DNA from: Phyllobates terribilis
Lineage: Eukaryota
Length of the DNA stretch: 64,000 bases
Direction of reading: 5' to 3'
Assembly: GCF_046119375.1 (NCBI RefSeq)
Contig: NW_027362767.1
Span: 422,902,001-422,966,000, forward strand
A program made the position numbers and the translations under genes. Shown here piece after piece: positions 1,864 to 62,968 of this stretch. The notes under the pieces are model-generated. The model saw nothing but the letters and a program-made list of their open reading frames with translations, had not been told where the DNA came from and searched no databases. Position 1 is the stretch's first letter; every line of letters starts with the position of its first letter.

Positions 1864-4800
1864 TCATGACGCCTGTGATATCGCCTCCACATACCAGTCG
1901 GGGACGACCGACTGATCAGAATCTGCTTCGACGGTAAAAGTGACGTCTTCACCCGGCTCCCAGGAGAACACAAAGACGACTCTATGGAGGATCAGGGAGA
2001 ATGATAAATGAGATTACCCGCAGCTGCTCCGAGATATTACTGCGGCACTAGCGGACAAGCCTTGCTCCGCAGCAGGAGGCGAGCGCCACAGACGACATCC
2101 TGTCCGGGGGCTTGTACGGACCTGTCCGGTTTACTAGTATAAGATTATAAGGTTCACACCCGATACCTGTTGACTGTGCACAAGTCCTGGCAAGCACCTG
2201 ACGACAGGACGTCATCACCTCCCAATGTGGATGTGAGTGGTGTCAGAGCAACCCTTTAATTATTCCCTCTGCTGCTGAGGAGCAACTGGACATAAAGCAA
2301 TTGATACAGACTTCAGTATCTGAGACATTAGCTTCCTCCGTCACCCGGAGGCAGCGCTTGATAGGATGCCCGTCAGTTTTACACTTATTGCCGTGTCCTT
2401 TATGGGTTTAAAAAATTCAAAAAACATGGCTGCTTCACCAAAAACAGTAGCACATGTGGGCACAGGATGTGTGAGTCCCACTGACTTCAATAGAGCTGCA
2501 ATACCAGATACAACCCATGAACAGGTGTGGCGCTATAAGAAAGCTTAATCCCAGGCAAACCCCTTTACGAGAGAGACGGCTTCTTACCTGGGGTCATCTG
2601 TGGTCACCACTTTCTTGATATAACTGAGGAAGGCGTTACAGAAGTTCATACACACGGCCGGATCCCAGCTCTGTCTGTCACCCTGCACCAAGGACAAATA
2701 CAAATGTTTCTCTGTACGACGACCTCCAATATGGTGGCGGCAGCAAGTGACTCTGTTACCCGGACTAAGTGAGAGATCTCCGACGTCCTGAACTTCTCCA
2801 GAGACACGATTCTTCCTTGTGGATTCCGAAATCCGGCGACGATGAGGGGGATCCCAAGCAGGAAGGACTGGCACCACCACTTCAGGAGTTTATACCTGGA
2901 GGGGGGAGAGAAGACGTTCATCTTTTATACAGTCCCCTGAGGGGAAGGGTGAGGGGTGTACATAATATCGGCTATGGCTGGCACCGGTGGAAGCTGCGCT
3001 GTTGGTGTGAGGTCCGAATCTGGGCACTCGTCTTCAGCTCTACGTAGCAGGATGGCGGTGAGGGATTTGTGCTGCTCGGGTCTTTGCAGTCCACCTCTCC
3101 GGAAACCAGGAAGGAATGAGATGCCAGGCGGCCCAGCAAGACGCTGCAAAAGCCCTCATTGGTGTTCACAACTTCAGACGGGCATGGAGCGCCATCAGGA
3201 GAATCTGGGTAGAAGATGTTATATAGGGAGCGATTTCTTACAGTCCTTCCATCCCCAGGTCCAATGTTACTAGGGGTTCCCCGAGAGGATATAAAGGAGA
3301 CGGACGCACCTACACACATGTAGCTCTCGAACTTGTACCCAGAGTACATCAGCTTCTCCTGCTCTCGAGTCCTCTCTTTCCTCTTCCTGTAAGCGGCAGC
3401 AGTCTCCCTCTCGCTGATATACAAGGTTCCCTTAAACAGCGTGACGGCCAGGATCCAGCCTTCTTGGCTTTCATACGGGGTGCACAGAATCTTAGTGAGG
3501 TGACCCCGCCAGGTGACAAAGTCTCGGTCCACCGGTCTGGAGGAAGAAAAATGTTATTAGGAAACTTTTGTAACTGGAATGGTGCACGGTAATGAAAATT
3601 TTTGGCTAAAAATGGGACTTTATATGTTGCAAAATAAATGTATTTATGCTACAGCTTTTCCAAAATCATCACCTTGGCAACTTTTTTGATACTTGTAGAC
3701 TGGTCCTGCATGAAGATTTTATTCCTGACACAGGTGAAGTGACCAAATATCATCGGCTAAATCGCAGCGTAATGCAGATGAATGGGGGGGGAGGGGTGTT
3801 GCATTGTGATCTGCAAAGCACTATGACCGTGACAAACAAGTTGCAAAAAAAAAAAAAAAATTCAACCAGTTCCTCTTTGCTTGTGACGTCATGGTTGTGT
3901 GACCAGAGTTGTGACCAAAACCGTAGTGTTGCCCCTCAGTCTTGCAATCCTAAATATGTTGCACTTTACGCCAAAAAGTTAACAAAGAGCCCTCTTCTCA
4001 TCACTTTTGATACATGTGGCCCCTAATATTCCTCTCCCGAGACTCCAATTTGTAGCTTTCGGACTCCATAAATGCAGCTTTAACTTCACACACGTTGCTC
4101 CGCCGCCATGATGAATGTAAACTGGGAAGTTGAAAGCAGCCGCCCTCTAAATATTTGTTTAGGGCGACAATGCCACTTTTTGATCCCCTATGCTCCCATG
4201 TATATACACGCACGCACACCTTTCCCCGTGGCCCCCCATGTATATACACGCACGCACGCCTTTCCCCGAGGCCCCCATGTATATACACGCACACACACCT
4301 TTCCCCGAGGCCCCCCCTGTATATACACGCACACACACCTTTCCCCGAGGCCCCCCCTGTATATGGCCCCTAATATTCCTCTCCCGAGACTCCGATTTGT
4401 AGCTTTCGGACTCCATAAATGCAGCTTTAACTTCACACACGTTGCTCCGCCGCCATGATGAATGTAAACTGGGAAGTTGAAAGCAGCCGCCCTCTAAATA
4501 TTTGTTTAGGGCGACAATGCCACTTTTTGATCCCCTATGCTCCCATGTATATACACGCACGCACACCTTTCCCCGTGGCCCCCCATGTATATACACGCAC
4601 GCACACCTTTCCCCGAGGCCCCCATGTATATACACGCACGCACACCTTTCCCCGTGGCCCCCCATGTATATACACGCACGCACACCTTTCCCCGTGGCCC
4701 CCATGTATATACACGCACGCACACCTTTCCCCGAGGCCCCCGTGTATATACACGCACGCACACCTTTCCACTAGGCCCCCCCTGTATATACACGCACACC

Positions 4801-7800
4801 TTTCCCCGAGGCCTCCGTTTATTACACACACTTTTCTCAGCGGCCCTCGTGTATAAACACACACGCACGCACCTTTCCCCGAGGCCCCCGTGTATATACA
4901 GTACAGACCAAAAGTTTGGACACACCTTCTCATTTAAAGATTTTTCTGTATTTTCATGACTATGAAAATTGTACATTCACACTGAAGGCATCAAAACTAT
5001 GAATTAACACATGTGGAATTATATACTTAACAAAAAAGTGTGAAACAACTGAAAATATGTCTTATATTCTAGGTTCTTCAAAGTAGCCACCTTTTGCTTT
5101 GATGACTGCTTTGCACACTCTTGGCATTCTCTTGATGAGCTTCAAGAGGTAGTCACCGGAAATGGTCTTCCAACAATCTTGAAGGAGTTCCCAGAGATGC
5201 TTAGCACTTGTTGGCCCTTTTGCCTTCACTCTGTGGTCCAGCTCACCCCAAACCAGCTCGATTGGGTTCAGGTCTGGTGACTGTGGAGGCCAGGTCATCT
5301 GGCGTAGCACCCCATCACTCTCCTTCTTGGTCAAATAGCCCTTACACAGCCTGGAGGTGTGTTTGGGGTCATTGTCCTGTTGAAAAATAAATGATAGTCC
5401 AACTAAACGCAAACGGGATGGAATAGCATGCCGCTGCAAGATGCTGTTGTAGCCATGCTGGTTCAGTATGCCTTCAATTTTGAATAAATCCCCAACAGTG
5501 TCACCAGCAAAGCACCCCCATACCATCACACCTCCTCCTCCATGCTTCACGGTGGGAACCAGGCATGTAGAGTCCATCCGTTCACCTTTTCTGTGTCGCA
5601 CAAAGACACGGTGGTTGGAACCAAAGATCTCAAATTGGGACTCATCAGACCAAAGCACAGATTTCCACTGGTCTAATGTCCATTCCTTGTGTTCTTTAGC
5701 CCAAACAACTCTCTTCTGCTTGTTGCCTGTCCTTAGGAGTGGTTTCCTAGCAGCTATTTTACCATGAAGGCCTGCTGCACAAAGTCTCCTCTTAACAGTT
5801 GTTGTAGAGATGAGTCTGCTGCTAGAACTCTGTGTGGCATTGACCTGGTCTCTAATCTGAGCTGCTGTTAACCTGCGATTTCTGAGGCTGGTGACTCGGA
5901 TAAACTTATCCTCAGAAGCAGAGGTGACTCTTGGTCTTCCTTTCCTGGGGCGGTCCTCATGTGAGCCAGTTTCTTTGTAGCGCTTGATGGTTTTTGCAAC
6001 TGCACTTGGGGACACTTTCAAAGTTTTCCCAATTTTTCAGACTGACTGAACTTCATTTCTTAAAGTAATGATGGCCACTCGTTTTTCTTTACTTAGCTGC
6101 TTTTTTCTTGCCATAATACAAATTCTAACAGTCTATTCAGTAGGACTATCAGCTGTGTATTCACCTGACTTCTGCACAACACAACTGATGGTCCTAGCCC
6201 CATTTATAAGGCAAGAAATCCCACTTATTAAACCTGACAGGGCACACCTGTGAAGTGAAAACCATTTCCGGTGACTACCTCTTGAAGCTCATCAAGAGAA
6301 TGCCAAGAGTGTGCAAAGCAGTCATCAAAGCAAAAGGTGGCTACTTTTAAAAACCTAGAATATAAGACATATTTTCAGTTGTTTCACACTTTTTTGGTAA
6401 GTATATAATTCCACATGTGTTAATTCATAGTTTTGATGCCTTCAGTGTGAATGTACAATTTTCATAGTCATGAAAATACAGAAAAATCTTTAAATGAGGT
6501 GTGTCCAAACTTTTGGTCTGTACTGTACGTGCGCACCTTTCCACTAGGCCCCGTGTATATACACGCACACACACACCTTTGCCCGAGGCCCTTATGTATA
6601 TACACAAACCTTTTCAGTAGGCCCCCGTTTATATACACGCACCTTTCCCCGAGGCCCCCGCGTATATACACGCACACCTTTCTCTGAGGCCCCCCATGTA
6701 CATACACGCACACGCACCTTTCCCCGAGGCCCCCGTGTATATACACGTACACAGAAAAAAGAGAGGGGTCGCTCACTGGTCTATTGCAGCAGGTACGTGT
6801 TCACACTATTAGAAGTTTGACAGCCTTTTTTCTGACCATGTGTCCCTCCCATTCAGTCACAGGTGGTTTTAACTAGCTCTACCAGCCCATACATTGTAGG
6901 TTAAAAGCCCAAGCAGAGACATATTGTCCATACAGGCTTACAGCCCAAGAGTGGCATATCCAGTGGTAGCGTAGCGTAGTTTCCCATCATACGAAGGTGA
7001 CCTTGTCGTGGTTGATGGGCACACATAAATTGGCCAAATTATGCGCAAAAAACCTTCATTTTTCAAAGTGACATTAGTCTAGATACGCAAAAAACCTTCA
7101 TTTTTCAAAGTGACATTAGTCTAGATACAATATTTCTTATATTTTCATGTATGGAGTGCCGAAGTTCTTTTTGCAATTGAGATTACTCTTTTCTTCAGAG
7201 CACCCGAATAGACCAGTGAGCGACCCCTCTCTTTTTTCTATTAATCATTTTTGGGATCCCGCTCCTGGAGCATTGCAGCAGGTACGTGTTCACACTATTA
7301 GAAGTTTGACAGCCTTTTTTCTGACCATGTGTCCCTCCCATTCAGTCACAGGTGGTTTTAACTAGCTCTACCAGCCCATACATTGTAGGTTAAAAGCCCA
7401 AGCAGAGACATATTGTCCATACAGGCTTACAGCCCAAGAGTGGCATATCCAGTGGTAGCGTAGCGTAGTTTCCCATCATACGAAGGTGACCTTGTCGTGG
7501 TTGATGGGCACACATAAATTGGCCAAATTATGCGCAAAAAACCTTCATTTTTCAAAGTGACATTAGTCTAGATACAATATTTCTTATATTTTCATGTATG
7601 GAGTGCCGAAGTTCTTTATACACGTACACACACCTTTCCCCGAGGCCCCCGTGTATATACACGCACACGCACCTTTCCCCGAGGCCCCCGTGTATATACA
7701 CGTACACACATCTTTCCCCGAGGCCCCCGTGTATATACACGTACACACATCTTTCTCCGAGGCCCCCCGTGTACATACACGCACACGCACCTTTCCCCGA

Positions 7801-9914: not shown

Positions 9915-12900
9915 CCCCTGTGTCGCCCCCCCCCCCTCCCCTGTGTCGCCCCCCCCCCCTCCCCTGTGTCGCCCCCCCCCCCTCCCCTGTGTCGCCCCCC
10001 CCCCTCCCCTGTGTCGCCCCCCCCCCCTCCCCTGTGTCGCCCCCCCCCCTCCCCTGTGTCGCCCCCCCCCCTCCCCTGTGTCGCCCCCCCCCCTCCCTGT
10101 GTCGCCCCCCCCTCCCCTGTGTCGCCCCCCCTCCCCTGTGTCGCCCCCCCCTCCCCTGTGTCGCCCCCCCCCCCGTGTCGCCCCCCCCCTCCCCTGTGTC
10201 GCCCCCCCCTCCCCTGTGTCGCCCCCCCTCCCCTGTGTCGCCCCCCCCTCCCCTGTGTCGCCCCCCCCCTCCCCTGTGTCGCCCCCCCCTCCCCTGTGTC
10301 GCCCCCCCCTCCCCTGTGTCGCCCCCCCCTCCCCTGTGTCGCCCCCCCCTCCCCTGTGTCGCCCCCCCTCCCCTGTGTCGCCCCCCCCTCCCCTGTGTCG
10401 CCCCCCCCTCCCCTGTGTCGCCCCCCCACCCCTCCCCTGTGTCGCCCCCCCACCCCTCCCCTGTGTCGCTCCCCCCACCCCTCCCCTGTGTCGCTCCCCC
10501 CACCCCTCCCCTGTGTCGCTCCCCCCACCCTCCCCTGTGTCGCTCCCCCCACCCTCCCCTGTGTCGCTCCCCCCCCCTCCCCTGTGTCGCTCCCCCCCCC
10601 TCCCCTGTGTCGCTCCCCCCCCCTCCCCTGTGTCGCTCCCCCCCCTCCCCTGTGTCGCTCCCCCCCCTCCCCTGTGTCGCTCCCCCCCTCCCCTGTGTCG
10701 CTCCCCCCTCCCCTGTGTCGCTCCCCCCTCCCCTGTGTCGCTCCCCCCCTCCCCTGTGTCGCTCCCCCCCCCTCCCCTGTGTCGCTCCCCCCCCTCCCTT
10801 GTGTCGCCCCCCCCTCCCCTGTGTCGTCCCCCCCCTCCCCTGTGTCGCTCCCCCCCCCTCCCCTGTGTCGCTCCCCCCCCTCCCCTGTGTCGCTCCCCCC
10901 CCTCCCCTGTGTCGCTCCCCCCCCCTCCCCTGTGTCGCTCCCCCCCCCTCCCCTGTGTCGCTCCCCCCCCTCCCCTGTGTCGCTCCCCCCCTCCCCTGTG
11001 TCGCTCCCCCCCCTCCCCTGTGTCGCTCCCCCCCTCCCCTGTGTCGCTCCCCCCCCTCCCCTGTGTCGCTCCCCCCCCTCCCCTGTGTCGCTCCCCCCCC
11101 TCCCCTGTGTCGCCCCCCCCCTCCCCTGTGTCGCTCCCCCCTCCCCTGTGTCGCTCCCCCCCCTCCCCTGTGTCGCTCCCCCCCCTCCCCTGTGTCGCTC
11201 CCCCTCCCCTGTGTCGCTCCCCCCCTCCCCTGTGTCGCTCCCCCCCCCCTCCCCTGTGTCGCTCCCCCCCCTCCCCTGTGTCGCTCCCCCCCCTCCCCTG
11301 TGTCGCTCCCCCCCCTCCCCTGTGTCGCTCCCCCCCTCCCCTGTGTCGCTCCCCCCCCTCCCCTGTGTCGCTCCCCCCCTCCCCTGTGTCGCTCCCCCCC
11401 TCCCCTGTGTCGCCCCCCCCTCCCCTGTGTCGCCCCCCCCTCCCCTGTGTCGCCCCCCCCTCCCCTGTGTCGCCCCCCCCTCCCCTGTGTCGCCCCCCCC
11501 CTCCCCTGTGTCGCCCCCCCTCCCCTGTGTCGCCCCCCCCTCCCCTGTGTCGCCCCCCCCTCCCCTGTGTCGCCCCCCCCTCCCCTGTGTCGCCCCCCCC
11601 CTCCCCTGTGTCGCCCCCCCCTCCCCTGTGTCGCCCCCCCCTCCCCTGTGTCGCCCCCCCCCCTCCCCTGTGTCGCCCCCCCCTCCCCTGTGTCGCCCCC
11701 TCCTCCCCTGTGTCGCCCCCCCCTCCCCTGTGTCGCCCCCCCCTCCCCTGTGTCGCCCCCCCCTCCCCTGTGTCGCCCCCCCCTCCCCTGTGTCGCCCCC
11801 CTCCCCTGTGTCGCCCCCCCTCCCCTGTGTCGCCCCCCCCTCCCCTGTGTCGCCCCCCCCTCCCCTGTGTCGCCCCCCCCTCCCCTGTGTCGCCCCCCCC
11901 TCCCCTGTGTCGCCCCCCACCCCTCCCCTGTGTCGCCCCCCCACCCCTCCCCTGTGTCGCTCCCCCCACCCCTCCCCTGTGTCGCTCCCCCCACCCTCCC
12001 CTGTGTCGCTCCCCCCACCCTCCCCTGTGTCGCTCCCCCCACCCTCCCCTGTGTCGCTCCCCCCACCCTCCCCTGTGTCGCTCCCCCCACCCTCCCCTGT
12101 GTCGCTCCCCCCACCCTCCCCTGTGTCGCTCCCCCCACCCTCCCCTGTGTCGCTCCCCCCACCCTCCCCTGTGTCGCTCCCCCCACCCTCCCCTGTGTCG
12201 CTCCCCCACCCTCCCCTGTGTCGCTCCCCCCACCCTCCCCTGTGTCGCTCCCCCCACCCTCCCCTGTGTCGCTCACCCCCCCTCCCCTGTGTCGCTCCCC
12301 CCCCTCCCCTGTGTCGCTCCCCCCCTCCCCTGTGTCGCTCCCCCCCCTCCCCTGTGTCGCTCCCCCCCCTCCCCTGTGTCGCTCCCCCCCCTCCCCTGTG
12401 TCGCTCCCCCCCCTCCCCTGTGTCGCTCCCCCCCCTCCCCTGTGTCGCTCCCCCCCCTCCCCTGTGTCGCTCCCCCCCCTCCCCTGTGTCGCTCCCCCCC
12501 CCTCCCCTGTGTCGCTCCCCCCCCCTCCCCTGTGTCGCTCCCCCCCCTCCCCTGTGTCGCTCCCCCCCCTCCCCTGTGTCGCTCCCCCCCCTCCCCTGTG
12601 TCGCTCCCCCCCCTCCCCTGTGTCGCTCCCCCCCCTCCCCTGTGTCGCTCCCCCCCCTCCCCTGTGTCGCTCCCCCCCCTCCCCTGTGTCGCTCCCCCCC
12701 CCTCCCCTGTGTCGCTCCCCCCCCTCCCCTGTGTCGCCCCCCCCTCCCCTGTGTCGCTCCCCCCCTCCCCTGTGTCGCTCCCCCCCCTCCCCTGTGTCGC
12801 CCCCCCCTCCCCTGTGTCGCCCCCCCCCCTCCCCTGTGTCGCTCCCCCCCCCTCCCCTGTGTCGCTCCCCCCCCCTCCCCTGTGTCGCTCCCCCCCCCTC

Positions 12901-15276
12901 CCCTGTGTCGCTCCCCCCCCTCCCCTGTGTCGCTCCCCCCCCTCCCCTGTGTCGCTCCCCCCCCTCCCCTGTGTCGCTCCCCCCCCTCCCCTGTGTCGCT
13001 CCCCCCCCTCCCCTGTGTCGCTCCCCCCCCTCCCCTGTGTCGCTCCCCCCCCCTCCCCTGTGTCGCTCCCCCCCCTCCCCTGTGTCGCTCCCCCCCCTCC
13101 CCTGTGTCGCTCCCCCCCTCCCCTGTGTCGCTCCCCCCCCTCCCCTGTGTCGCTCCCCCCCTCCCCTGTGTCGCTCCCCCCCCTCCCCTGTGTCGCCCCC
13201 CCTCCCCTGTGTCGCTCCCCCCCCCTCCCCTGTGTCGCTCCCCCCCCCTCCCCTGTGTCGCTCCCCCCCCTCCCCTGTGTCGCTCCCCCCCTCCCCTGTG
13301 TCGCTCCCCCCCTCCCCTGTGTCGCTCCCCCCCCTCCCCTGTGTCGCTCCCCCCCCTCCCCTGTGTCGCTCCCCCCCTCCCCTGTGTCGCTCCCCCCCTC
13401 CCCTGTGTCGCTCCCCCCCCTCCCCTGTGTCGCTCCCCCCCCTCCCCTGTGTCGCTCCCCCCCCCTCCCCTGTGTCGCTCCCCCCCCTCCCCTGTGTCGC
13501 TCCCCCCCCTCCCCTGTGTCGCTCCCCCCCCTGTGTCGCTCCCCCCCCTCCCCTGTGTCGCTCCCCCCCCCTCCCCTGTGTCGCTCCCCCCCCCTCCCCT
13601 GTGTCGCTCCCCCCCCCTCCCCTGTGTCGCTCCCCCCCCCCCCTGTGTCGCTCCCCCCCCTCCCCTGTGTCGCTCCCCCCCCCTCCCCTGTGTCGCTCCC
13701 CCCCCCTCCCCTGTGTCGCTCCCCCCCCTCCCCTGTGTCGCTCCCCCCCCTCCCCTGTGTCGCTCCCCCCCCTCCCCTGTGTCGCTCCCCCCCCTCCCCT
13801 GTGTCGCTCCCCCCCCTCCCCTGTGTCGCTCCCCCCCTCCCCTGTGTCGCTCCCCCCCTCCCCTGTGTCGCTCCCCCCCCTCCCCTGTGTCGCTCCCCCC
13901 CCTCCCCTGTGTCGCTCCCCCCCCTCCCCTGTGTCGCTCCCCCCCCTCCCCTGTGTCGCTCCCCCTCCCCTCCCCTGTGTCGCTCCCCCTCCCCTCCCCT
14001 GTGTCGCTCCCCTCCCCTCCCCTGTGTCGCTCCCCCTCCCCTCCCCTGTGTCGCTCCCCCTCCCCTCCCCTGTGTCGCTCCCCCTCCCCTCCCCTGTGTC
14101 GCTCCCCCTCCCCTCCCCTGTGTCGCTCCCCCTCCCCTCCCCTGTGTCGCTCCCCCTCCCCTCCCCTGTGTCGCTCCCCCTCCCCTCCCCTGTGTCGCTC
14201 CCCCTCCCCTCCCCTGTGTCGCTCCCCCCCTCCCCTGTGTCGCTCCCCCCCTCCCCTGTGTCGCTCCCCCCCTCCCCTGTGTCGCTCCCCCCCTCCCCTG
14301 TGTCGCTCCCCCCCCTCCCCTGTGTCGCTCCCCCCCCTCCCCTGTGTCGCTCCCCCCCCTCCCCTGTGTCGCTCCCCCCCCTCCCCTGTGTCGCTCCCCC
14401 CCTCCCCTGTGTCGCTCCCCCCCCTCCCCTGTGTCGCTCCCCCCCCCTCCCCTGTGTCGCTCCCCCCCTCCCCTGTGTCGCTCCCCCCCCCCCTCCCCTG
14501 TGTCGCTCCCCCCCCCCTCCCCTGTGTCGCTCCCCCCCTCCCCTGTGTCGCTCCCCCCCTCCCCTGTCGTCCGCAGTCTCTTCCCCCGTGTCGTCCCCCC
14601 TCCCCTGTCGTCCGCAGTCTCTTCCCCCGTGTCGTCCGCAGTCTCTTCCCCCGTGTCGTCCGCAGTCTCTTCCCCCGTGTCGTCCGCAGTCTCTTCCCCC
14701 GTGTCGTCCGCAGTCTCTTCCCCCGTGTCGTCCGCAGTCTCTTCCCCCGTGTCGTCCGCAGTCTCTTCCCCCGTGTCGTCCGCAGTCTCTTCCCCCGTGT
14801 CGTCCGCAGTCTCTTCCCCCGTGTCGTCCGCAGTCTCTTCCCCCGTGTCGTCCGCAGTCGCCCCCCTCCCCCGTGTCGTCCGCAGTCGCCCCCCTCCCCC
14901 GTGTCGTCCGCAGTCGCCCCCCTCCCCCGTGTCGTCCGCAGTCGCCCCCCTCCCCCGTGTCGTCCGCAGTCGCCCCCCTCCCCCGTGTCGTCCGCAGTCG
15001 CCCCCCTCCCCCGTGTCGTCCGCAGTCGCCCCCCTCCCCCGTGTCGTCCGCAGTCGCCCCCCTCCCCCGTGTCGTCCGCAGTCGCCCCCCTCCCCCGTGT
15101 CGTCCGCAGTCGCCCCCCCTCCCCCGTGTCGTCCGCAGTCGCCCCCCCTCCCCCGTGTCGTCCGCAGTCGCCCCCCTCCCCCGTGTCGTCCGCAGTCGCC
15201 CCCCTCCCCCGTGTCGTCCGCAGTCGCCCCCCTCCCCCGTGTCGTCCGCAGTCGCCCCCCTCCCCGTGTCGTCCGC
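9915..15276. repeat. 5.4-kb C-rich (plus) / G-rich (minus) satellite with three unit classes
   Basis: Units are cccctgtgtcgc(t)ccccccct (19-24 bp) to about 14560, 24-bp gtctcttcccccgtgtcgtccgca (about 14566-14855) and 28-bp cgcagtcgcccccctcccccgtgtcgtc (to about 15276). No stop codons, hence the 800-1800-aa ORFs. Confidence 0.97.
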
Positions 15277-15668
15277 TGGCGCCCTCTATGTCTTGCCTTG
15301 GTGTAGGGTGATGATCACACACACACACGACCGTACACCAGGCACAGATCCCCCTATGACCGTGTCACTGAGGCCTCAGCCGTCCTCCACCTCTCTATAA
15401 TCCGCCTCATGTGTGACTTTGTCTCCAGACCTGTATTATAGAGGGTGGAGGCGCCGGGGCGTGTGAGCGCGCTCTTTCTGTGCCTGTCAAACCTCGCTTA
15501 TGTTTCCTGCTTGTTCTGCCACCACCAGCACTTTCTGCAGTGAAGACGATGGCGGCCGTGCAGCAGATACAACTGTGACACCGATCCCTGATATAATCGT
15601 CCTCTCCAGACTTTATCTTTATCTGTACAGGAGGCCGGACGTCTCCCACCCCAGCCCCGTTCCCCTTC

Positions 15669-18600: not shown

Positions 18601-20380
18601 TTATAGTAGTTATATTCTTGTACATAGGGAGCAGTATTATAGTAGTTATATTCTTGTACATAGGGGGCAGTATTATAGTAGTTATATTCTTGTACATAGG
18701 GAGCAGTATTATAGTAGTTATATTCTTGTACATAGGGGGCAGTATTATAGTAGTTATATTCCAGTACATAGGGGGCAGTATTATAGTAGTTATATTCCTG
18801 TACATAGGGGGCAGTATTATAGTAGTTATATTCTTGTACATAGGGAGTAGTATTATAGTAGTTATATTCTTGTACATAGGGAGCAGTATTATAGTAGTTA
18901 TATTCTTGTACATAGGGAGCAGTATTATACTAGTTATATTCCAGTACATAGGGAGCAGTATTATAGTAGTTATATTCTTGTACATAGGGGGCAGTATTAT
19001 AGTAGTTATATTCTTGCACATAGGGGGCAGTATTGTAGTCGCTATGTTCTTGCACATAGGGGGCGCAGTAACAATTAAATAAGTACAACTCCTAAAATGC
19101 AGAAATTCTTTCTTGTAGAGCTCTTTACAGCAGAAGGGGGAGGTGTGCCTTATCCAGCCTGGTTTTGACCCTGACACTTTCCTTGTGGTCAGGAAGGAAG
19201 ATTTTCTAGGAGCTGTCATTAGAAGCATAGATGGAAGTTCTGGAGCCCCCGTCGTCCGCCGCTTCCTGGACTCCAGCCTTTTCTCTCCCTCTAAAATGAG
19301 TTACAACCGGGAAGAGATGATGGAGAGACACCGGTTCAGCGATGCAGAGATCACGTAAGGATAGGACATTGTGTTATAGGGATGACAGAAGGGTGAAATG
19401 TAAGAAGCAAATGTTCCCCTCCCTTACAATGTATTCTAAAAGAGGATCCTGTTTTGCTGAGTTTCATCTCATTATATGTTTTTCTCTCAGGCAGCTGGTT
19501 CGTGCCGGGCTTCTCACCGTGAGGGATGCCGGGAGCTGGTGGCTATCCATCCCCGGAGCCGGCAAGTTTAGCAAACATTTTATAAAAGGTAACTAATAAT
19601 CAGGCCGAAACTCAGTCGCCATAGTGTAAGGCCATCCTCTTACAAGATCCTGTAGTCTCATGTTCATGGTAATTCCAGTCTTGTGTTTGTCCTGACAATG
19701 CTAGTCACATAGTAGCCCTCATCATCTTATACTCATTGTTAGGCTCATAGTGCCAGTTTCGTGGTAAAGTACTTGTTCCTGCGTCTGTGTAAGTACTGAT
19801 AGTGTACCTGCCATGATACAGTTCTAATGCATTCAGGGTCCGTTGCTGTAGGGGAGGCTTAGTGGATGAATTTGCCGCCGGTTGCCCAGCTCTGGTCTAT
19901 ATATTATGTATTCCCATCTCTCTAATGATTTGTCCTTACACCTTTTGTGTATTCTGCAGGACGGAAAGCTCTTATTTCACAGATCAGCCGCTCCCGATAT
20001 AAAGAAGTCCTTCTCACCGATCTGTCCAGTAGAAAACCTCCCCCTGCCCTGAAACTAGGAATGGAGTATCACATTCACGACATCATTGGGGCCGGGCTAG
20101 TGGACTGGTGAGTGGCGAGACGTCCAGTAATGATGTGTGGCATTACCTGGAGCAACAAGTTAGATTTTATCCATTATTTTATATGAGGCTGAAGTATAAT
20201 AACTGCACAGATTCCATTCACTGACAGCAAACCTAAATCTGTAAAATGGTTAATGATTATTGTTTGCCATACCTAGTAATAATGGTAATTGCTTGTGTAA
20301 TGTCACTAGATCCTCGCCCTTTTCTCTTTTTCAGTGTTCCCACGCCCTCCGGGACCCTCCTGCGTCTATCAAACTTGTAG
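15669..20380 (+). CDS. STK19: STK19 (WHR1), tandem winged-helix transcription-coupled repair factor, 258 aa, 6 coding exons
   Basis: Exons 15669-15771, 16991-17136, 19119-19354, 19491-19588, 19960-20107, 20335-20380. GT-AG with consistent phases; total 777 nt. Motifs LFPRKLF, DRTTVDR, LTVRDAGSWWLSIPGAG, YHIHDIIGAGLVDC and SGTLLRL. Confidence 0.95.
17161..19062. repeat. 30-33-bp AT-rich minisatellite (about 60 units) filling STK19 intron 2
   Basis: Unit gcagtattatagtagttatattcttgtacatagg(g/a). It generates the spurious MYKNITTIILPP and YIGSSIIVVIFL ORFs. Confidence 0.96.
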
Positions 20381-28300: not shown

Positions 28301-31300
28301 AGGGGGGAACACATGGCCCTCCAACCCTCTGCTGACCATCCTGTATGCCAACCTCCAATACAGTGTCCTATAGCACAAGCAGAACATCTCACCTTGTACA
28401 TAGTACACATCATATTGCAGGCTGCTATCATTATGGTCTATGAAATAACTATCCCATCAATGGTGCAATATATGATGTTGTCCCTCACACCTAGCACTAT
28501 ACCTTTCTCTCATGGCATATTCCTTACATTGGTCAGCTGCTATGACAATCAATATTACTCGTTATAAACATTTGTCGTGTCACTGTGAACGCCTTCCTGG
28601 GCAATAGCATCCTTTTGGTAATTGCCTTTTGGAGCCGGCATAGTAACGTAATGGTAATTAAGTCATATCCTGACTGTGGGGAATACACCATTTCCCCTGG
28701 GGTCCTTTGAAGTCAGACAGACTAGCATTCCTGCTGAGACCTTCATCACTGGAAATATGAATTTCCAGTCCCTGGACTCGCCACACCCTTCTATGCTAAT
28801 CTATATATTGATGTGTCTGCAGGTTACACATGGGGTCCCACCGCCTTCATAGTGGATGACGGGACGACCCCGGACGGACTGAGCCTCGGCGCGGTGGTGG
28901 TGGATGACGATACGAAGAACATATTCTTGGTTTACACGTTGTGTGCCCATTACCTCCAGTGCGGAGTCTCCAGCGTCATGGTGACCAACAGCTCGGATGA
29001 CGGTATCACCTGGAGCACGCCGAGGAATCTCTCCCGAGAAATTGGCACCAAAATGTTTTCCCCCGGGCCAGGATATGGAATCCAAGTGGGTGGAGGGTCG
29101 AGTTTGTGACCAGATAAATAATTTCGTCCGCTTTGGATATTAAAGCAATTTGTTTTTCTTTGTTATACACAGAAAAAGTTTTCTCCAAAGATGGGGCGCC
29201 TGATTGTCTGCGGGCATGGGACGCTGGACGAGGACGGCATCTTTTGTCTCTTAAGTGACGATCATGGGAACAGCTGGAAGCAGGGGGGAAAGCTGGAGGG
29301 GCTGCCGTTCAAGCAACGTAAGCGGACAGGGGACTTTAGCCCGGATGAGTGTCAGGTAACGGGAATCTCGCAGCATGTGACCCACTATCCTCCGTGCTGC
29401 AGCTAACCGCCTGCTCTTCTCTCCCACACAGCCCTATGAACTCCCGGATGGCACCGTGGTCATTAACGCCCGCAACCAGTACTTCTATCACTGTCGCTGC
29501 CGAATTGTGTCCTTCTCCACCGACGGCTGTGACACGCTTCCTCTAGAAAATGTCCGCTTCGATGAGGGTCTACCGGACCCAGCGGTGGCAGCCGGTGTTT
29601 TGTACAAAGGCGGCGTCACCTACTTTGTCAACGCAGCCAACCAGTCTAAAAGTAAGACTGACAATCGGCTTGTTCTGGTAGAAGTCTGAGCTGTACAGGG
29701 GTATACGTGGGGCAGCGCCATAACTAGAAGGTGTCCGGTGCCGCAGACTTCCACACCAGGAGGTGAGCGGCGCTGATGACTACAAATCTGCACGTACCTG
29801 TCAGGACGCAAGATACCGGCCACGTACATCATCTGCACCACCATCTCCTGACTGTGCAAGCGAGCGGTACTGGACAACCTATTTAACCTCTTCATGTGGT
29901 GGCCAATTTTCATTTTTTTTCTTCTAAGAACCATAACTTTTTTTTTTTTTTCTCGTCGACATAGCTATCCATTTTATTCTGTAATGCACTAAAAACAGAA
30001 ATGGTGAAGAGGGGGAAAAAAAATAATTGTGCAGTAAAAATGATCTGAGAATGTGATTCTCCAGCTACGTACAATAACGGCGATACCGAACTTGTAGAAA
30101 AGATGCTGACATTTGTAAAAATAAAGAGAAAATTATTGTTTTTTTTTTTTTTTTTTTTTTTTTTTATCGGTAATTATTTTTCTATCAATGGAGCTTGTGT
30201 TTTTTTTTTTATTCATAACATTGTGGGGTATATATGAAGTTTTGATCTTTTTATTGCACTTTTTTTTAGGTAGGTGTGATTACCGAAAAACCCAAAATTC
30301 TAATGTTTTATTTTTAGTTGTTATTTATATAGATATTTTATTATGCATTTGTATTAAATTATTTATATAAGATTATTATTGATTAAAAATATTTTTATTC
30401 ATATAAATAGTAATCTTATATAAAAATGTTACTAAAAAATGTATAATTTTAATAATAAAAAATATATAGACTTTCACTTTTAGATTTCAATCTCCTTCAG
30501 GGTCTTGAACTTTGTTCTATATGCTGCAATACTTACAGCGTATACACCATTTTATTTTTTTATTTTTCTCCGTAAATCAATAGTCCAAATGAAAATAAAT
30601 AAGATATATTACAAAGTTTATCTTAGAGAGATCCGCTTATTTCTCCTCCTGGACTGATCCTTACTCTGTCATTTCAGTCACTACAGATGTTTCCCATTAC
30701 TGAGATAAGAGATGACAGTTGGTGCTTTTCAAATTTAATGAAGAGGGGAGGAGCCAGCGGAACACACAGACATTCTACTGCAAGTGCCATAGGAGATGAC
30801 AGTTGGTGCTCAAAGTTCTATGGCACTTGCAGTAGAATGTCTGTGTGTTCCGCTGGCTCCTCCCCTCTTCATTGAATTTGAAAAGCACCAACTGTCATCT
30901 CCTGTCTCAGTAATGGGGAAACATCTGTGTTCACTGCAGACATATTTTACCCATAGTTTGAGAATGAAAGATCAGTCCTGGAGGTGAAAGAAGCAGATTT
31001 CTCTAATAAATATTACAACGTTTCTTACTGTCATGTGTACTATTGATTTATGGGAAAAAGAAAACGAGGGAGGGCTCTTTAAGTATTGCACTACATAGTA
31101 AACATGATGGTCTCCCATGGAGGTTAGCCATAGGCTGGCTTCATAGGAGGACTGACAGCGATGAGGGGTGGAGGGAGTTGATGGGCAGTTTCCCCGTCAA
31201 GGTGTCGCTGTCAGTGATTGACATCAGCATTTAAATGGTCACTCTGGTCGCTGCTGCTTAGTGTCGCGGTAGAGAGGGGGCCATAACCCCTGCGGCTTTC

Positions 31301-35250: not shown

Positions 35251-37923
35251 ATGACCAGTCAGTCCCAGGGCATCCAGCAACTGCTGCAGGCCGAGAAGAG
35301 AGCGGCCGAGAGGGTGTCAGAGGCCAGGAAACGTAAGATTATNNNNNNNNNNNNNNNNNNNNNNNNNNNNNNNNNNNNNNNNNNNNNNNNNNNNNNNNNN
35401 NNNNNNNNNNNNNNNNNNNNNNNNNNNNNNNNNNNNNNNNNNNNNNNNNNNNNNNNNNNNNNNNNNNNNNNNNNNNNNNNNNNNNNNNNNNNNNNNNNNN
35501 NNNNNNNNNNNNNNNNNNNNNNNNNNNNNNNNNNNNNNNNNNNNNNNNNNNNNNNNNNNNNNNNNNNNNNNNNNNNNNNNNTCCCTTGACCTCCTCCATG
35601 AACTCCCAGGTCAGGAGGTCTATTATTGCTGACCAGTTATCTTATCACTAGATGCCCCCCACTACCCGTTCGCCCTTTATTTATGGGCAGCTAATATTTA
35701 TATTCTATGCTGCATTTTGATTTGAAGCCATTGGGTGTAATGTTTTGCTCCTTTCCTATAGGTAAGGCCCGGAGACTGAAACAAGCCAAGGAGGAGGCCC
35801 AGGGAGAGATCGAGCAATATCGGATAGAAAGAGAGCGGGAATTCCAGAGCCAGCAGCGCACCGTACGTAGACGGCGGGTATTATTCACTAGTTGGCGGTA
35901 GTATGTTCAGTGCATGGCGATATAGTGATAGAAGTCAGCGTCGAATGATCACGCTAAAAAAAAACAACTGCAAATTGAAAGCAGTAATCGGAGGCCGATC
36001 CTTGGATTTTGGCCCTGGATTTTCCATCAGATGTGGCATTCAATGGGTTAAACCACATGTGGCTCCCAATAATCGTCACTTATTTTTTAATTTCGATTTT
36101 TGGTGGGAAACAATGAATGTTTACTTTATATCATAAGTCAATGTTTACATTTGGAGAAAAATTTTGTTCAATTTACCAATTTAGTTGCAATTTTTGTACA
36201 TCAATATCGGAGATCTGTGGCTTTTTGTTTGGTGAAATTGTGACTTTGTGTTGGACATATGTAAATATTTACTACTTTATGTAACATTGCCCTAACCTTC
36301 GCTCTTACCCTATTAGGATTAGGGCTATATAGGGTTAGAAAAACAAAAAATAGAATAAAAAATAAATATATCTTTTACCCGTGGGTATACTACTATTATG
36401 GTATATTTTGTACCATATTTTTTGGAGCAAATTCAGTGATAAATCTCCTCCATTACTTTTTGACTGCAGCATTAAAGGGGTATTCCCATCTCCAATATCC
36501 TACCTATCCCACTATGTACTAGGTATAATAATCGCAAATAGCAAGGAAAATGTGACAACTAAATGTCACAGAGGGGAAAAAAAAAGTTTCCCAGAATTTT
36601 ACAAAAGCTTCCCTAGAGCATTAATGGGGTATTCCCATCACCAAGATCCTATCCCAATATGTAGTAGGTGTAATAATGATAATAATAGCAAATACACTAC
36701 AATTGGAAATGTAGTATAGTTCTTCTGATTAGCTATGTCACTACATTTCTAATTGAAGGTATTTGCTAATATTATTATTATTACACCTACTACATATTGG
36801 GATAGGATCTTGGAGATGGGAATAACCCTTTAAGTGCTAGAATTAACTTAATCATCAATGGTTACCCTTAACAAAATCTCTATCTATACATCACCAGTTC
36901 CTCTTTGTCAGTAATCACATGTTAGCAAAGAGGGGAAAGTTCAAGTTCCCCAACTTTTCAGTATGGGAGGCCAATAAATGCCATGTTCGTCACGGCAAGG
37001 GGCAGTAAGGTGAATTAATCAACTACAGAAGGAAGGCCCCCTTTATTTTAGGGTATTACTTACCTCCTCTCTTTTTGTAAAAAACGTAAAGAATTTGATT
37101 TATCATTTGCGATTTATTAAAGTTTCTTTTTTTTTTACCTTGTCGTAATTTTTTTTTGGGCTCCAAATTCTTCAAAACGGCACACGCGGTTCATGAATTT
37201 GGCGCAAAGTCAAAAAAAAGTATTTTATTTTTCTTTACTTTAATCATTTTTTTTCATCCTTTTAAAAAAAAGGTCTCACTTTTGTCTTAAAACGCGTCAC
37301 ACTAACAACTCCGCCAGAAATCTTACTCCCCGTGAGGTGTGCCAAAAAAAAAAATATTATGACATTTGCTAAAAGTGTAAGTTCATCAAAATGTATAAAA
37401 ATCTAGATAAGTAAAGTTGTTGGAGGAAATAAAAAAATACATAAAAAAAAAAGAAAGATAAATTTAAAAAAAAAATAGCGCAAAATTTATAGAGAATAAA
37501 ATTGCTCCAGAAAAGTGGAGAAATGTCAGTTTGAAGCTTGTAGACCCCAATGCAAAATCTCCAACAAGGGCCCCGCGGGTGTCCGGGGGTGACTGCACCT
37601 TGCACCCACTATCCGCTGGCCCCGAACTCCTGACGTTGCCACGAAACCAGGGTCCTGCACTGTAATAAGGAGGGGGGGTATTTTGATTTTTGGTCGGGTC
37701 TCTCCTTTGTATCTTATATGTGTTCTGATTGGCTTCTTGCACACAGGCTTTGGGCACCCAGGGTGACCTGTCCTCTGAGATTGAGGCCCGAACCCGGCAT
37801 ACGCTCCAGATGGTGCAGAGCAGCCATGGGAAGAATAAAGAGGCCGTGCTGAGGAGGCTACTGAGCCTCGTGTGCGACGTGAAACCCGAACTGCACCCCA
37901 ACTACCGCTTCACCAACTACTGA
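35251..37923 (+). CDS. ATP6V1G2: V-type proton ATPase subunit G2, 119 aa, 3 exons
   Basis: Exons 35251-35332 (82 nt), 35762-35862 (101 nt), 37747-37923; begins MTSQSQGIQQLLQAEKRAAE. KARRLKQ, CDVKPELHPNYR and the MHC class III context favour G2 over G1 or G3. Confidence 0.92.
35343..35581. other. Assembly gap (239 N) in ATP6V1G2 intron 1
   Basis: Run of N. Confidence 1.
36625..36829. mobile_element. T2/Kolobok-type MITE in ATP6V1G2 intron 2, with a partial copy at about 36475-36550
   Basis: TTAA flanks; long TIRs gggtattcccatc..caagatcctatcccaatatgtagtaggtgtaataat. Confidence 0.8.
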
Positions 37924-38434: not shown

Positions 38435-40084
38435 CAGTTAGGTCCATATATATTTGGACAGAGACAACATTTTTCTAATTTTGGTTCTAGACATTACCAC
38501 AATGAATTTTAAACAAAACAATTCAGATGCAGTTGAAGTTCAGACTTTCAGCTTTCATTTGAGGGTATCCACATTAAAACTGGATGAAGGGTTTAGGAGT
38601 TTCAGCTCCTTAACATGTGACACCCTGTTTATAAAGGGACCAAAAGTAATTGGACAATTGACTCCAAGGCTATTTCATGGACAGGTGTGGGCAATCTCTT
38701 CATTATGTCATTCTCAATTAAGCAGATAAAAGGCCTGGAGTTGATTTGAGGTGTGGTGCTTGCATTTGGAAGGTTTTGCTGTGAAGTAAACATGCGGTCA
38801 AAGGAGCTCTCCATGCAGGTGAAACAAGGCATCCTTAAGCTGCAAAAACAGAAAAAACACATCCGAGAAATTGCTACAATATTAGAAGTGGCAAAATCTA
38901 CAGTTTGGTACATCCTGAGAAAGAAAGAAAAAGCACTGGTGAACTCATCAATGCAAAAAGACCTGGGCGCCCACGGAAGACAACAGTGGTGGATGATCGC
39001 AGAATAATCTCCATGGTGAAGAGAAACCCCTTCACAACAGCCAACCAAGTGAAGAACACTCTCCAGGAGGTAGGCGTATCAATATCCAAATCTACCATAA
39101 AGAGAAGACTGCATGAAAGTGAATACAGAGGGTTCACTGCACGGTGCAAGCCACTCATAAGAATCAAGAATAAAAAGGCTAGACTGGACTTTGCTAAAAA
39201 ACATCTAAAAAAGCCAACACAGTTCTGGAAGAACATTCTTTCGACAGATGAAACCAAGATCAATCTCTACCAGAATGATGGAAAGAGAAAAGTATGGCGA
39301 AAGCGTGGTACAGCTCATGATCCAAAGCATACCACATCATCTGTAAAACACGGTGGAGGCAGTGTGATGGCTTGGGCATGCATGGCTGCCAGTGGCACTG
39401 GGTCACTAGTGTTTATTGATGATGTGACACAGGACAGAAGCAGCCAAATGAATTCTGATGTATTCAGAGCCATACTGTCTGCTCAGATCCAGACAAATGC
39501 AGCCAAACTGATTGGTCGTCGTTTCATACTACAGATGGACAATGACCCAAAACATAAAGCCAAAGCAACCCAGGAGTTTATTAAAGCAAAGAAGTGGAAT
39601 ATTCTTGAATGGCCAAGTCAGTCACCTGATCTCAATCCAATTGAGCATGCATTTCACTTGTTAAAGACTAAACTTCAGACAGAAAGGCCCACAAACAAAC
39701 AGCAACTGAAAACCACCGCAGTGAAGGCCTGGCAGAGCATCAAAAAGGAGGAAACACAGCGTCTGGTGATGTCCATGAGTTCAAGACTTCAGGCAGTCAT
39801 TGCCAACAAAGGGTTTTCAACCAAGTACTGGAAATGAACATTTTATGTACAATTATTTAATCTGTCCAATTACTTTTGGTCCCTTTAAAAACAGGGTGGC
39901 ACATGTTAAGGAGCTGAAACTCCTAAACCCTTCATCCAGTTTTAATGTGGATACCCTCAAATGAAAGCTGAAAGTCTGAACTTCAACTGCATCTGAATTG
40001 TTTTGTTTAAAATTCATTGTGGTAATGTCTAGAACCAAAATTAGAAAAATGTTGTCTCTGTCCAAATATATATGGACCTAACTG
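38435..40084 (+). mobile_element. Tc1 transposon, full length, one frameshift near 38930
   Basis: About 220-bp TIRs CAGTTAGGTCCATATATATTTGGACAG. ATG at 38792 (MRSKELS), then the frame to 39837 with STDETK, QMDNDPKH and SPDLNPIE. The right flank is TG rather than TA. Confidence 0.95.
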
Positions 40085-40111: not shown

Positions 40112-41738
40112 CAGTACAGACCAAAAGTTTGGACACATTCTCATTTAAAGATTTTTCTGTATTTTCATGACTATGAAAATTGTACATTCACACTGAAGGC
40201 ATCAAAACTATGAATTAACACATGTGGAATTATATACTTAACCAAAAAGTGTGAAACAACTGAAAATATGTCTTATATTCTAGGTTCTTCAAAGTAGCCA
40301 CCTTTTGCTTTGATGACTGCTTTGCACACTCTTGGCATTCTCTTGATGAGCTTCAAGAGGTAGTGACCGTGAATGGTCTTCCAACAATCTTGAAGGAGTT
40401 CCCAGAGATGCTTAGCACTTGTTGGCCCTTTTGCCTTCACTCTGCGGTCCAGCTCACCCCAAACCATCTCGATTGGGTTCAGGTCTGGTGACTGTGGAGG
40501 CCAGGTCATCTGGCGTAGCACCCCATCACTCTCCTTCTTGGTCAAATAGCCCTTACACAGCCTGGAGGTGTGTTTGGGGTCATTGTCCTGTTGAAAAATA
40601 AATGATGGTCGAACTAAACGCAAACTGGATGGAATAGCATGCTGCTGCAAGATGCTGTGGTAGCCATGCTGGATCAGTATGCCTTCAATTTTGAATAAAT
40701 CCCCAATAGTGTCACCAGCAAAGCACCCCCATACCATCACACCTCCTCCTCCATGCTTCACGGTGGGAACCAGGCATGTAGAGTCCATCCGTTCATCTTT
40801 TCTGTGTCGCACAAAGACACGGTGGTTGGAACCAAAGATCTCAAATTTGGACTTGTCAGACCAAAGCACAGATTTCCACTGGTCTAATGTCCATTCCTTG
40901 TGTTCTTTAGCCCAAACAAGTCTCTTCTGCTTGTTGCCTTTCCTTAGCAGTGGTTTCCTAGCAGCTATTTTACCATGAAGGCCTGCTGCACAAAGTCTCC
41001 TCTTAACAGTTGTTGAAGAGATGTGTCTGCTGCTAGAACTCTGTGTGGCATTGACCTGGTCTCTAATCTGAGCTGCTGTTAACCTGCGATTTCTGAGGCT
41101 GGCGACTCGGATAAACTTATCCTCAGAAGCAGAGGTGACTCTTGGTCTTCCTTTCCTGGGGCGGTCCTCATGTGAGCCAGTTTCTTTGTAGCGCTTGATG
41201 GTTTTTGGAACTGCACTTGGGGACACTTTCAAAGTTTGCCCAATTTTTCAGACTGACTGACCTTCATTTCTTAAAGTAATGATGGTCACTCGTTTGTCTT
41301 TACTTAGCTGCTTTTTTCTTGCCATAATACAAATTCTAACAGTCTATTCAGTAGGACTATCAGCTGTGTATCCACCAGACTTCTGCACAACACAACTGAT
41401 GGTCCCAACCCCATTTATAAGGCAAGAAATCCCACTTATTAAACCTGACAGGGCACACCTGTGAAGTGAAAACCATTTCCGGTGACTACCTCTTGAAGCT
41501 CATCAAGAGAATGCCAAGAGTGTGCAAAGCAGTCATCAAAGCAAAAGGTGGCTACTTTGAAGAACCTAGAATATAAGACATATTTTCAGTTGTTTCACAC
41601 TTTTTTGTTAAGTATATAATTCCACATGTGTTAATTCATAGTTTTGATGCCTTCAGTGTGAATGTACAATTTTCATAGTCATGAAAATACATAAAAATCT
41701 TTAAATGAGAAGTGTGTCCAAACTTTTGGTCTGTACTG
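40112..41738 (-). mobile_element. Tc1 transposon, second copy of the family at 4899-6525, same codon-26 TGA
   Basis: TA flanks and the same TIRs. ATG at 41325, TGA at 41250-41248, open frame to 40273. Confidence 0.96.
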
Positions 41739-61795: not shown

Positions 61796-62968
61796 TCATA
61801 TTCTTGTTTTCTCATAATTTTTCTGTGCCCAGCTCAGTTTGTGATACCTGAGCCATAACCTGTTGTCCCAGCAATACTCAGGTGATAGCACCTTGGATGG
61901 TAAATATTCCAAAGTTAGGTATCTGTTGAGATGGCTTTCATCATGCCATATAGCTTCTACACCCCTTTTCTTGTCTTCTAAAATGCCCTTCAGGCAGCTC
62001 GAAGTGAGGTTGGTGAGAAGTGTGGGCTTTCCACCAAACACTGCTCCATGGTAATAAAAAGTACCGGCCCATGGAGGTATGAAAGCCATAGATAAAGGGT
62101 TCCTTTCAAGGGGATATTCCTTTCTGTTTGCTAAGTAATATCCAGAATGTAGCTGAGCCACAAGGTCACCAAGAGTTTCTGGTCCGTAATTGGAGGAGAA
62201 TATCTAGAGATATGAAGAGAAGAAAGAAAATGTAAGTGTATAGTTCATTGTTTGTAGATCTATCTATCTATTTCTTGTGTCCTAATGGTTCACCAAGTTT
62301 TCCAAGCACCAAACTGTAGACCACTGGTCAACAAAGTAAACTTACCTGATCAACATCCATACAGAAAAGGTAATCCACTTCATCATGAGCCAGGGGCAGC
62401 ACTAGATCTCTCAGATCCATCATGCGCAACATTGAGATGTCCTGCCAACGTGCCCGGTTGGTCACTTGGAGGGTTATTATGGACATACCCGATCGTTCAT
62501 GGATTCTGGGCACATCTGATGGACGGTCAGTGAGGATATAGACTACGCAAGGTAGCCCAGGCATGAAGAAGCGATTGGCAGAGACAAGAAAGTCTTCAAG
62601 GTAGGTGTCAAGATACCTGAGGAGACAAGAGCGGAGATGACCTATGTCTTCCAGTCACACATCAACTTTGCAGTATGCACAGATTTTTCCTTTCTCTCTC
62701 CTTCCACGTTACTTTCCACCATGCCTGTCGAGTTTCTGCATATTATTCCCTCTATCTTGGAATAAACTGCCACATGATAGCCCACATACGTCCTGTACGT
62801 TGCGCTGGAAAATAAATCATGAACACTCACTTCCCAACTGCAAATACTGAGAGACCAACCACAGTTCCACGAGCCCGATGAAGAAGATTTTCCTCCTCAC
62901 GATCAAATGTTCCTTCCCACACGATGGGAGCTCCCCAAGACGTTATAGAAGACACCTTAGGAAAGCAT
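61796..62968 (-). CDS. GT6-family alpha-1,3-glycosyltransferase (A3GALT2/GGTA1-like), catalytic-domain exons; 5' exons not found in the window
   Basis: Exons 62968-62831 (138 nt), 62616-62346 and 62203-61796; GT-AG, in frame, no stops. Motifs WGAPIVWEGTF, GLSVFAVGKY, WQDISMLRM, CMDVD, FYYHGAVFGG, WHDESHLN and KVLSPEYCW. Confidence 0.92.

Follow-up and report, generated by a model that had tools for sequence, protein, structure and literature searches.

Why should a gene of the ABO/alpha-gal glycosyltransferase family (GT6) lie among MHC class III genes in a frog? The human GT6 genes ABO, GBGT1, GGTA1P and GLT6D1 lie on 9q33-34, on the chromosome arm that also carries ATP6V1G1, and A3GALT2 lies at 1p35. 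The initial annotation of a 64,000-nt stretch of Phyllobates terribilis DNA (hereafter the window) suggested that the frog gene could be an MHC-paralogon ohnolog of the blood-group family, retained in frogs and lost in mammals, with a lineage-specific translocation as the alternative. The window contains the following features.

2587..3553, minus strand: DXO/RAI1 exons (Pfam RAI1/DXO; approximate ORF bounds)
19929..20108, plus strand: STK19 exon (Pfam Stk19; approximate ORF bounds)
28738..29686, plus strand: sialidase (NEU1-like) exons (Pfam BNR_2; approximate ORF bounds)
35257..37920, plus strand: V-ATPase G subunit gene (ATP6V1G2 by position), the nearest gene found to the left of GT6 (Pfam match at 35.3-37.9 kb)
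61796..62203, minus strand: GT6 exon C, with the HGA donor motif, the WHDE catalytic motif, the C-terminal W-x-x-K-x-Y...R and the stop codon
62204..62345, minus strand: extra GT6 intron of 142 nt, phase 0, GT-AG, after DVDQ
62346..62616, minus strand: GT6 exon B, with the DVD metal-binding motif (DVDQ) at its end
62830..62968, minus strand: GT6 exon A, with the stem and the WGAPIVWEG motif to FAVGK; joints seen in contigs

Positions 61796-62968 of the minus strand hold a complete GT6 gene with three coding exons bounded by GT-AG ends, all of which matched PF03414 above the cut-off (163, 93 and 39 bits). The catalytic domain reported as intact is part of a complete gene and is split by the extra intron rather than forming one block. 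A further exon, 3.9 kb outside the window end, encodes the transmembrane segment and is included in one contig from run X14; the start-codon exon of the gene was not located. Exons C and A match protein record P0003 at 100%, and exon B is identical by reading. Both introns are spliced out in contigs from three of four runs (X6, X7 and X14, from three studies). No RNA label is recorded for these runs, yet their joints fall at the GT-AG ends; in the DNA-type run X5 the introns are not skipped. A PF03414 search of this genome gave 15 matches, corresponding to seven GT6 genes, and the intron after DVDQ is found in the MHC-linked gene only, the other six being ABO-type genes with a single long catalytic exon. 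An Eleutherodactylus gene model resumes at the start of exon C, a mere hint of the extra intron there. At position 61356, in the 3´ untranslated part, all four runs carry three extra bases relative to the window.

Pfam matches, from a scan of 289 ORFs of at least 55 aa outside tandem repeats up to 55 kb, placed DXO, STK19 and NEU1 in the same window as GT6, as first annotated, and the reported 24 kb to ATP6V1G2 corresponds to 23.9 kb from stop to stop. We take the V-ATPase G gene to be ATP6V1G2 from its position and from its likeness to the human sequence. Beyond the window, where names such as SKIV2L-like and C2/Bf-like were read from domains, a SKIV2L-like helicase and a DUF4661 gene lie to the left of the DXO-STK19-NEU1-V-ATPase G genes, and a gene with Sushi and trypsin domains, of the C2/factor B type, lies at 423.17-423.21 Mb to the right of GT6 (422.96 Mb). 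The ~190 kb between GT6 and the C2/Bf-like gene is mostly transposon sequence, and no N runs were found in the window and the next 200 kb except at 35343-35581. Class III genes lie on both sides of GT6 with no gap between. Farther along the same chromosome (C7) are a TNF-family cluster at 422.08-422.43 Mb (0.5-0.9 Mb to the left), an A2M-family, C4-like gene at 425.6 Mb (2.6 Mb to the right), MHC class I genes from 427.2 Mb (4.2 Mb) and class II beta at 428.4 Mb (5.4 Mb). C4 was missed on C7 by a search with ANATO; the C4-like gene came from the A2M search. With the order TNF-family, SKIV2L-like, DXO, STK19, NEU1, ATP6V1G2, GT6, C2/Bf-like, C4-like, class I, class II beta, the frog GT6 gene is within the MHC proper. 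NEU1 also adjoins the V-ATPase G gene in the catshark and lungfish MHC tables.

Repeats are frequent in this region. The DXO to STK19 interval contains a 5.4-kb GC-rich tandem array of 22- and 28-bp units (window 9915-15284), and three long Tc1/mariner-type transposase frames were seen at 5062-6036, 38839-39837 and 40273-41247, two of them near-identical 324-aa copies. An open hAT transposase frame of 1237 aa with a BED finger occupies 3188-6898 of locus L028, and 30 kb in the span of the C2/Bf-like gene (L040-L042) are 94-97% locally repeated.

Chromosome C7 also bears a 9q block at 237-276 Mb, 150-185 Mb from GT6, and this counts for an intrachromosomal move of the gene and against an old MHC position. 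The stomatin-like match is 148 Mb from GT6, and the MHC-linked gene is not in a DAB2IP-STOM neighbourhood. No GGTA1-type gene was found near the frog stomatin-like and C5-like genes, close to the place that GGTA1 occupies in mammals. Two ABO-type genes with the AGG motif lie at 274.0-275.9 Mb (region of L002, L003 and L054), 1.1 Mb from the stomatin-like gene and 1.8 Mb from the C5-like gene.

Four trees were built from 103, 67, 85 and 46 chosen GT6 rows, excluding tandem-duplicated models and one bacterial fusion. In all four, the amphibian proteins joined those of sharks, with support of 95, 94/92 (mixture model; below star), 99 and 98/97. In the tree with 98/97, GGTA1 was separate at 97/94 and A3GALT2 at 97/95. 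The GGTA1 clade comprised bichir, sturgeon, paddlefish, lungfish, reptiles and mammals, and the A3GALT2 clade comprised ray, horn shark, lungfish, gar, teleosts and one mammal-like row. The trees gave no resolution of the branching among the MHC-linked, GGTA1 and A3GALT2 lineages and the lampreys, which leaves the split undated relative to the genome doublings.

Topology tests bear on the placement of the frog protein. With 46 rows, AU tests rejected ABO orthology (p 0.003; the LGG, AGG and MGA motifs are also absent) and A3GALT2 orthology (p 0.0025, with mammals represented by one row). The protein does not nest in either; the initial annotation had counted nesting in a recent frog-specific ABO/A3GALT2 expansion against its own reading. 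Grouping with amniote GGTA1 (p 0.032) and with amniote plus lungfish GGTA1 (p 0.014) was rejected as well. Amphibians as sister to all bony-vertebrate GGTA1 were not rejected (p 0.127 with 46 rows, 0.20 with 34 rows). With 34 rows, rejection was also not reached for amphibians joined with amniote GGTA1 (p 0.097) or with ABO (p 0.23). Separately, ABO-like genes with an MAA motif on C8 at 135.4-135.7 Mb (L005, L006) group with an axolotl gene in a clade of amphibian sequences; mammalian ABO and the C7 copies sit together in another clade.

How widely is the lineage distributed? When exon C was searched (best 120 of 341 matches), the top matches, at 62-100% identity, belonged to 20 genera of anurans, ranging from Discoglossus to ranids and dendrobatids, with two copies in some species. 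Together with searches using the lungfish protein (best 120 of 1202) and the catshark protein (best 120 of 1310) and a profile search, the members among the matches listed come from these 20 genera, from axolotl and from sharks and make up a single clade; the lineage is not specific to frogs. No Xenopus protein was among the best 120 of 341 exon C matches, which agrees with PMC5377540, where only ABO genes are reported in X. tropicalis. No member of the lineage was found in amniotes, lungfish or ray-finned fish among the matches listed. The gene is retained in frogs, as proposed, though not in frogs only, and by the matches listed the loss extends beyond mammals. In horn shark, the MHC-linked lineage and A3GALT2 are both present. 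No genome with both an MHC-linked member and a GGTA1-clade gene was found among the matches listed, in which caecilian, newt, coelacanth and chimaera rows are absent. A 50%-cluster search added no clade member among the 18 HxA-type representatives placed. GGTA1-clade rows outside mammals were also recovered (P0075, P0215, P0228, P0262, P0263, P0043, P0071 and P0145); the presence of such genes in lungfish, sturgeon, paddlefish, bichir, tuatara, lizards and turtles speaks against a mammal-only origin of GGTA1.

Outside frogs, positions were obtained from chromosome lengths and accession order rather than from direct coordinates; the shark and axolotl proteins include XP_041068307, XP_041068289, XP_038672264 and XP_069491101. 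The axolotl copy is on a sequence of 848,590,089 bases; PMC12619710 places the end of the core MHC on axolotl chromosome 13 at 821.1 Mb, with genes ~21 Mb further (~843 Mb). The catshark copy is on a sequence of 163,470,629 bases, with an accession 175 away from that of MHC-linked b2m, and catshark chromosome 13 is given as 163 Mbp in PMC9992475. LOC119976138, 1.2 Mb from neu1, is a candidate for the catshark locus. The white shark copies are on a sequence of 115,848,844 bases; the last gene of chromosome 19 is at 115.61 Mb in the PMC10751288 supplement. Their accessions are 59 and 77 below that of an MHC II beta. On a monotonic accession-to-GeneID scale from four MHC proteins, with pairings partly inferred and 0.7-1.4 proteins per ID, they interpolate to ~80-107 Mb, an arithmetic estimate, in a chromosome whose MHC interval is 76-115 Mb. 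By this indirect evidence, an MHC chromosome carries the gene in axolotl and in two sharks (white shark and catshark), and the linkage appears to extend beyond frogs at chromosome level. Six 9q33-34 marker symbols were absent from the shark MHC-chromosome sheets and occurred only in the sheets for chimaera, reedfish chromosome 9 and lungfish chromosome 12. In lungfish, ~24,000 accession numbers separate the GGTA1-clade protein from the MHC proteins, which puts it off the MHC block. A counterpoint is that no such GT6 gene is named for the MHC chromosomes of sawfish and reedfish, in sheets that give gene names; in the shark sheets, unnamed LOC rows might conceal one. Class-I-like and GT6 accessions are ~290 apart in Bufo bufo, 800-1000 in B. 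gargarizans and 1800 in Rana temporaria, a weak indication of proximity, at chromosome level at best.

We consider it very probable that the frog gene belongs to an old MHC-linked lineage distinct from GGTA1, and probable that it is the MHC-side whole-genome-duplication ohnolog of GGTA1, which sharks and amphibians have retained. According to PMC5377540, GGTA1 has DAB2IP and STOM as its neighbours in the 9q33 paralogon, giving the frog gene a paralog in another MHC paralogon (the lungfish copy being off the MHC block), and paralogons 6 and 9 are proposed as sister regions in PMC10751288. One HAA-type gene in the proto-MHC would have given rise to copies in MHC paralogon 6 (the frog GT6 gene) and paralogon 9 (GGTA1), of which sharks and amphibians would have retained the MHC copy and bichirs, sturgeons, lungfish and amniotes GGTA1. 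The ohnolog first suggested is supported, as an inferred step, with GGTA1 rather than ABO as the probable twin. The main weakness of this reading is that no genome with both genes was found among the matches listed and that all loci outside this frog were placed indirectly. The A3GALT2 site at 1p35 is not known as a classic MHC paralogon site, which is a further point against it. The same trees and synteny would result if a local or segmental duplication had produced an old paralog that reached the MHC ahead of the shark/bony split; GT6 genes move often (PMC5571153), and the lamprey rows leave the split undated. We regard this as unlikely, however, as the position of GGTA1 in the 9q33 paralogon (PMC5377540) and the proposed sister relationship of paralogons 6 and 9 (PMC10751288) fit a doubling without an extra move.

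Could the frog gene instead simply be GGTA1, an ancestral MHC gene that moved to 9q33 in some lineages, with fast amphibian evolution skewing the tree? The distribution complementary to GGTA1 among the matches listed is the pattern that one moving gene would give, the automatic names are GGTA1-like, and amphibians as sister to bony-vertebrate GGTA1 were not rejected (p 0.127). However, the placements expected from the species tree were rejected (p 0.032 and 0.014), ray-finned fish, lungfish and amniotes would each need a move of their own unless the amphibian gene had moved back, and H at the Q247 site and a small residue at the W249 site are common to the shark and amphibian proteins. We find such a simple orthology rather improbable. 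A frog-specific transposed copy of ABO or A3GALT2, or an assembly mis-join, might be suspected from the repeats that abound both in the 24 kb from ATP6V1G2 to GT6 and in the 190 kb beyond. We judge either to be very improbable, given the AU rejections (p 0.003 for ABO, 0.0025 for A3GALT2), the gapless class III flanks and the relatives placed, indirectly, on the MHC chromosomes of three distant species. The same flanks and the indirectly placed axolotl and shark relatives speak against a lineage-specific translocation.

What might the product of the frog gene do? By alignment, frog D159, D161, H214, W248-H-D-E251, W287, K290 and R296 match bovine alpha3GT, whose catalytic and UDP-binding residues are all conserved. 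Trp287, at the bovine W356 site, presumably excludes fucosylated acceptors. The best PDB match was GGTA1 (E 3.5e-82, a mutant chain), and the predicted model (pLDDT 87.5) has a GT-A fold and an N-terminal membrane helix at 2-24, with a TM of 0.87 and 46% identity to bovine alpha3GT. PF03414, DXD and WHDE are all present and place the protein in CAZy GT6, with the GT-A fold and membrane helix as predictions. A code table in PMC5377540 lists HGA as conferring galactose-only (B-only) activity in an A-transferase background, and PMC6351642 gives HAA as the motif of GGTA1 and iGb3 synthase; from His214-Gly-Ala, galactose is predicted as the donor. The product is thus predicted, from its residues, to be a UDP-Gal alpha-1,3-galactosyltransferase. 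At the Q247/W249/W250 pocket, frogs have H/G/Y and sharks mostly H/A/F, with W249 kept in six of six GGTA1-clade rows of the alignment, and this alteration probably means an acceptor differing from that of GGTA1. GGTA1 prefers N-glycan LacNAc; the open pocket of the frog protein points to some other acceptor. As a Golgi enzyme, the protein would be a metal-dependent, retaining transferase that adds Gal to a terminal beta-galactoside without fucose, and its predicted product is Gal-alpha1,3-Gal carried by a glycolipid or a mucin-type chain. The absence of alpha-gal on amphibian fibroblasts reported in PMC12047429 and PMC8601398 counts against this reading, but such an acceptor would fit it.

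The frog protein keeps DVD, H280, WHDE, W356, K359 and R365 of GGTA1, but changes Q247 to H, W249 to G, W250 to Y and A281 to G (HAA to HGA), has almost no stem and an extra intron, and belongs to a separate clade encoded in MHC class III rather than at DAB2IP-STOM. With A3GALT2 (iGb3 synthase) it shares His at the 247 site and a His-x-Ala donor motif, but it falls in a separate clade and its gene is not beside ZNF362/TRIM62. With the ABO A/B transferases it shares the GT6 fold and an H-x-G-Y acceptor stretch resembling HPGY; it differs in clade, in His at the 266 site and in Trp, where ABO has Ala, at what we take to be the fucose-side position. It is thus predicted to work like GGTA1 or iGb3 synthase while belonging to none of GGTA1, A3GALT2 and ABO. 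Like the MHC paralogon ohnolog sets (ATP6V1G1/2/3, C4/C5, B3GALT4), it pairs a class III gene with a 9q33-34 relative; unlike them, its MHC copy is missing in mammals, with none among the Xenopus matches listed, and would therefore be omitted from human- or Xenopus-based paralogon maps.

Because public records name it GGTA1-like, the protein was already known; of its identity as a separate, MHC-linked lineage, no description was found in the literature searched (subscription papers and the axolotl annotation may bear on this). In the available portions of the main texts of PMC12619710, PMC12863176, PMC10751288, PMC9679377, PMC10210626 and a 2026 TLR preprint, galactosyltransferase terms gave no matches. 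The automatic GGTA1-like names constitute a hidden-paralogy trap. Published histories derive GGTA1 from A3GALT2 in mammals (PMC5571153) and confine alpha1,3GT to mammals (PMC8601398). We give about even chances to the broader view that the blood-group family is a proto-MHC family, with a third galactose-transferring lineage in the shark and amphibian MHC for >400 million years, producing Gal-alpha1,3-Gal as a self glycan where this sugar is said to be lacking, and reciprocally lost with GGTA1. The lineage, if as proposed, would change both histories, and the ABO/alpha-gal family would join the gene sets that trace the proto-MHC. The lineage provides a concrete enzyme for asking whether sharks and amphibians make Gal-alpha1,3-Gal.
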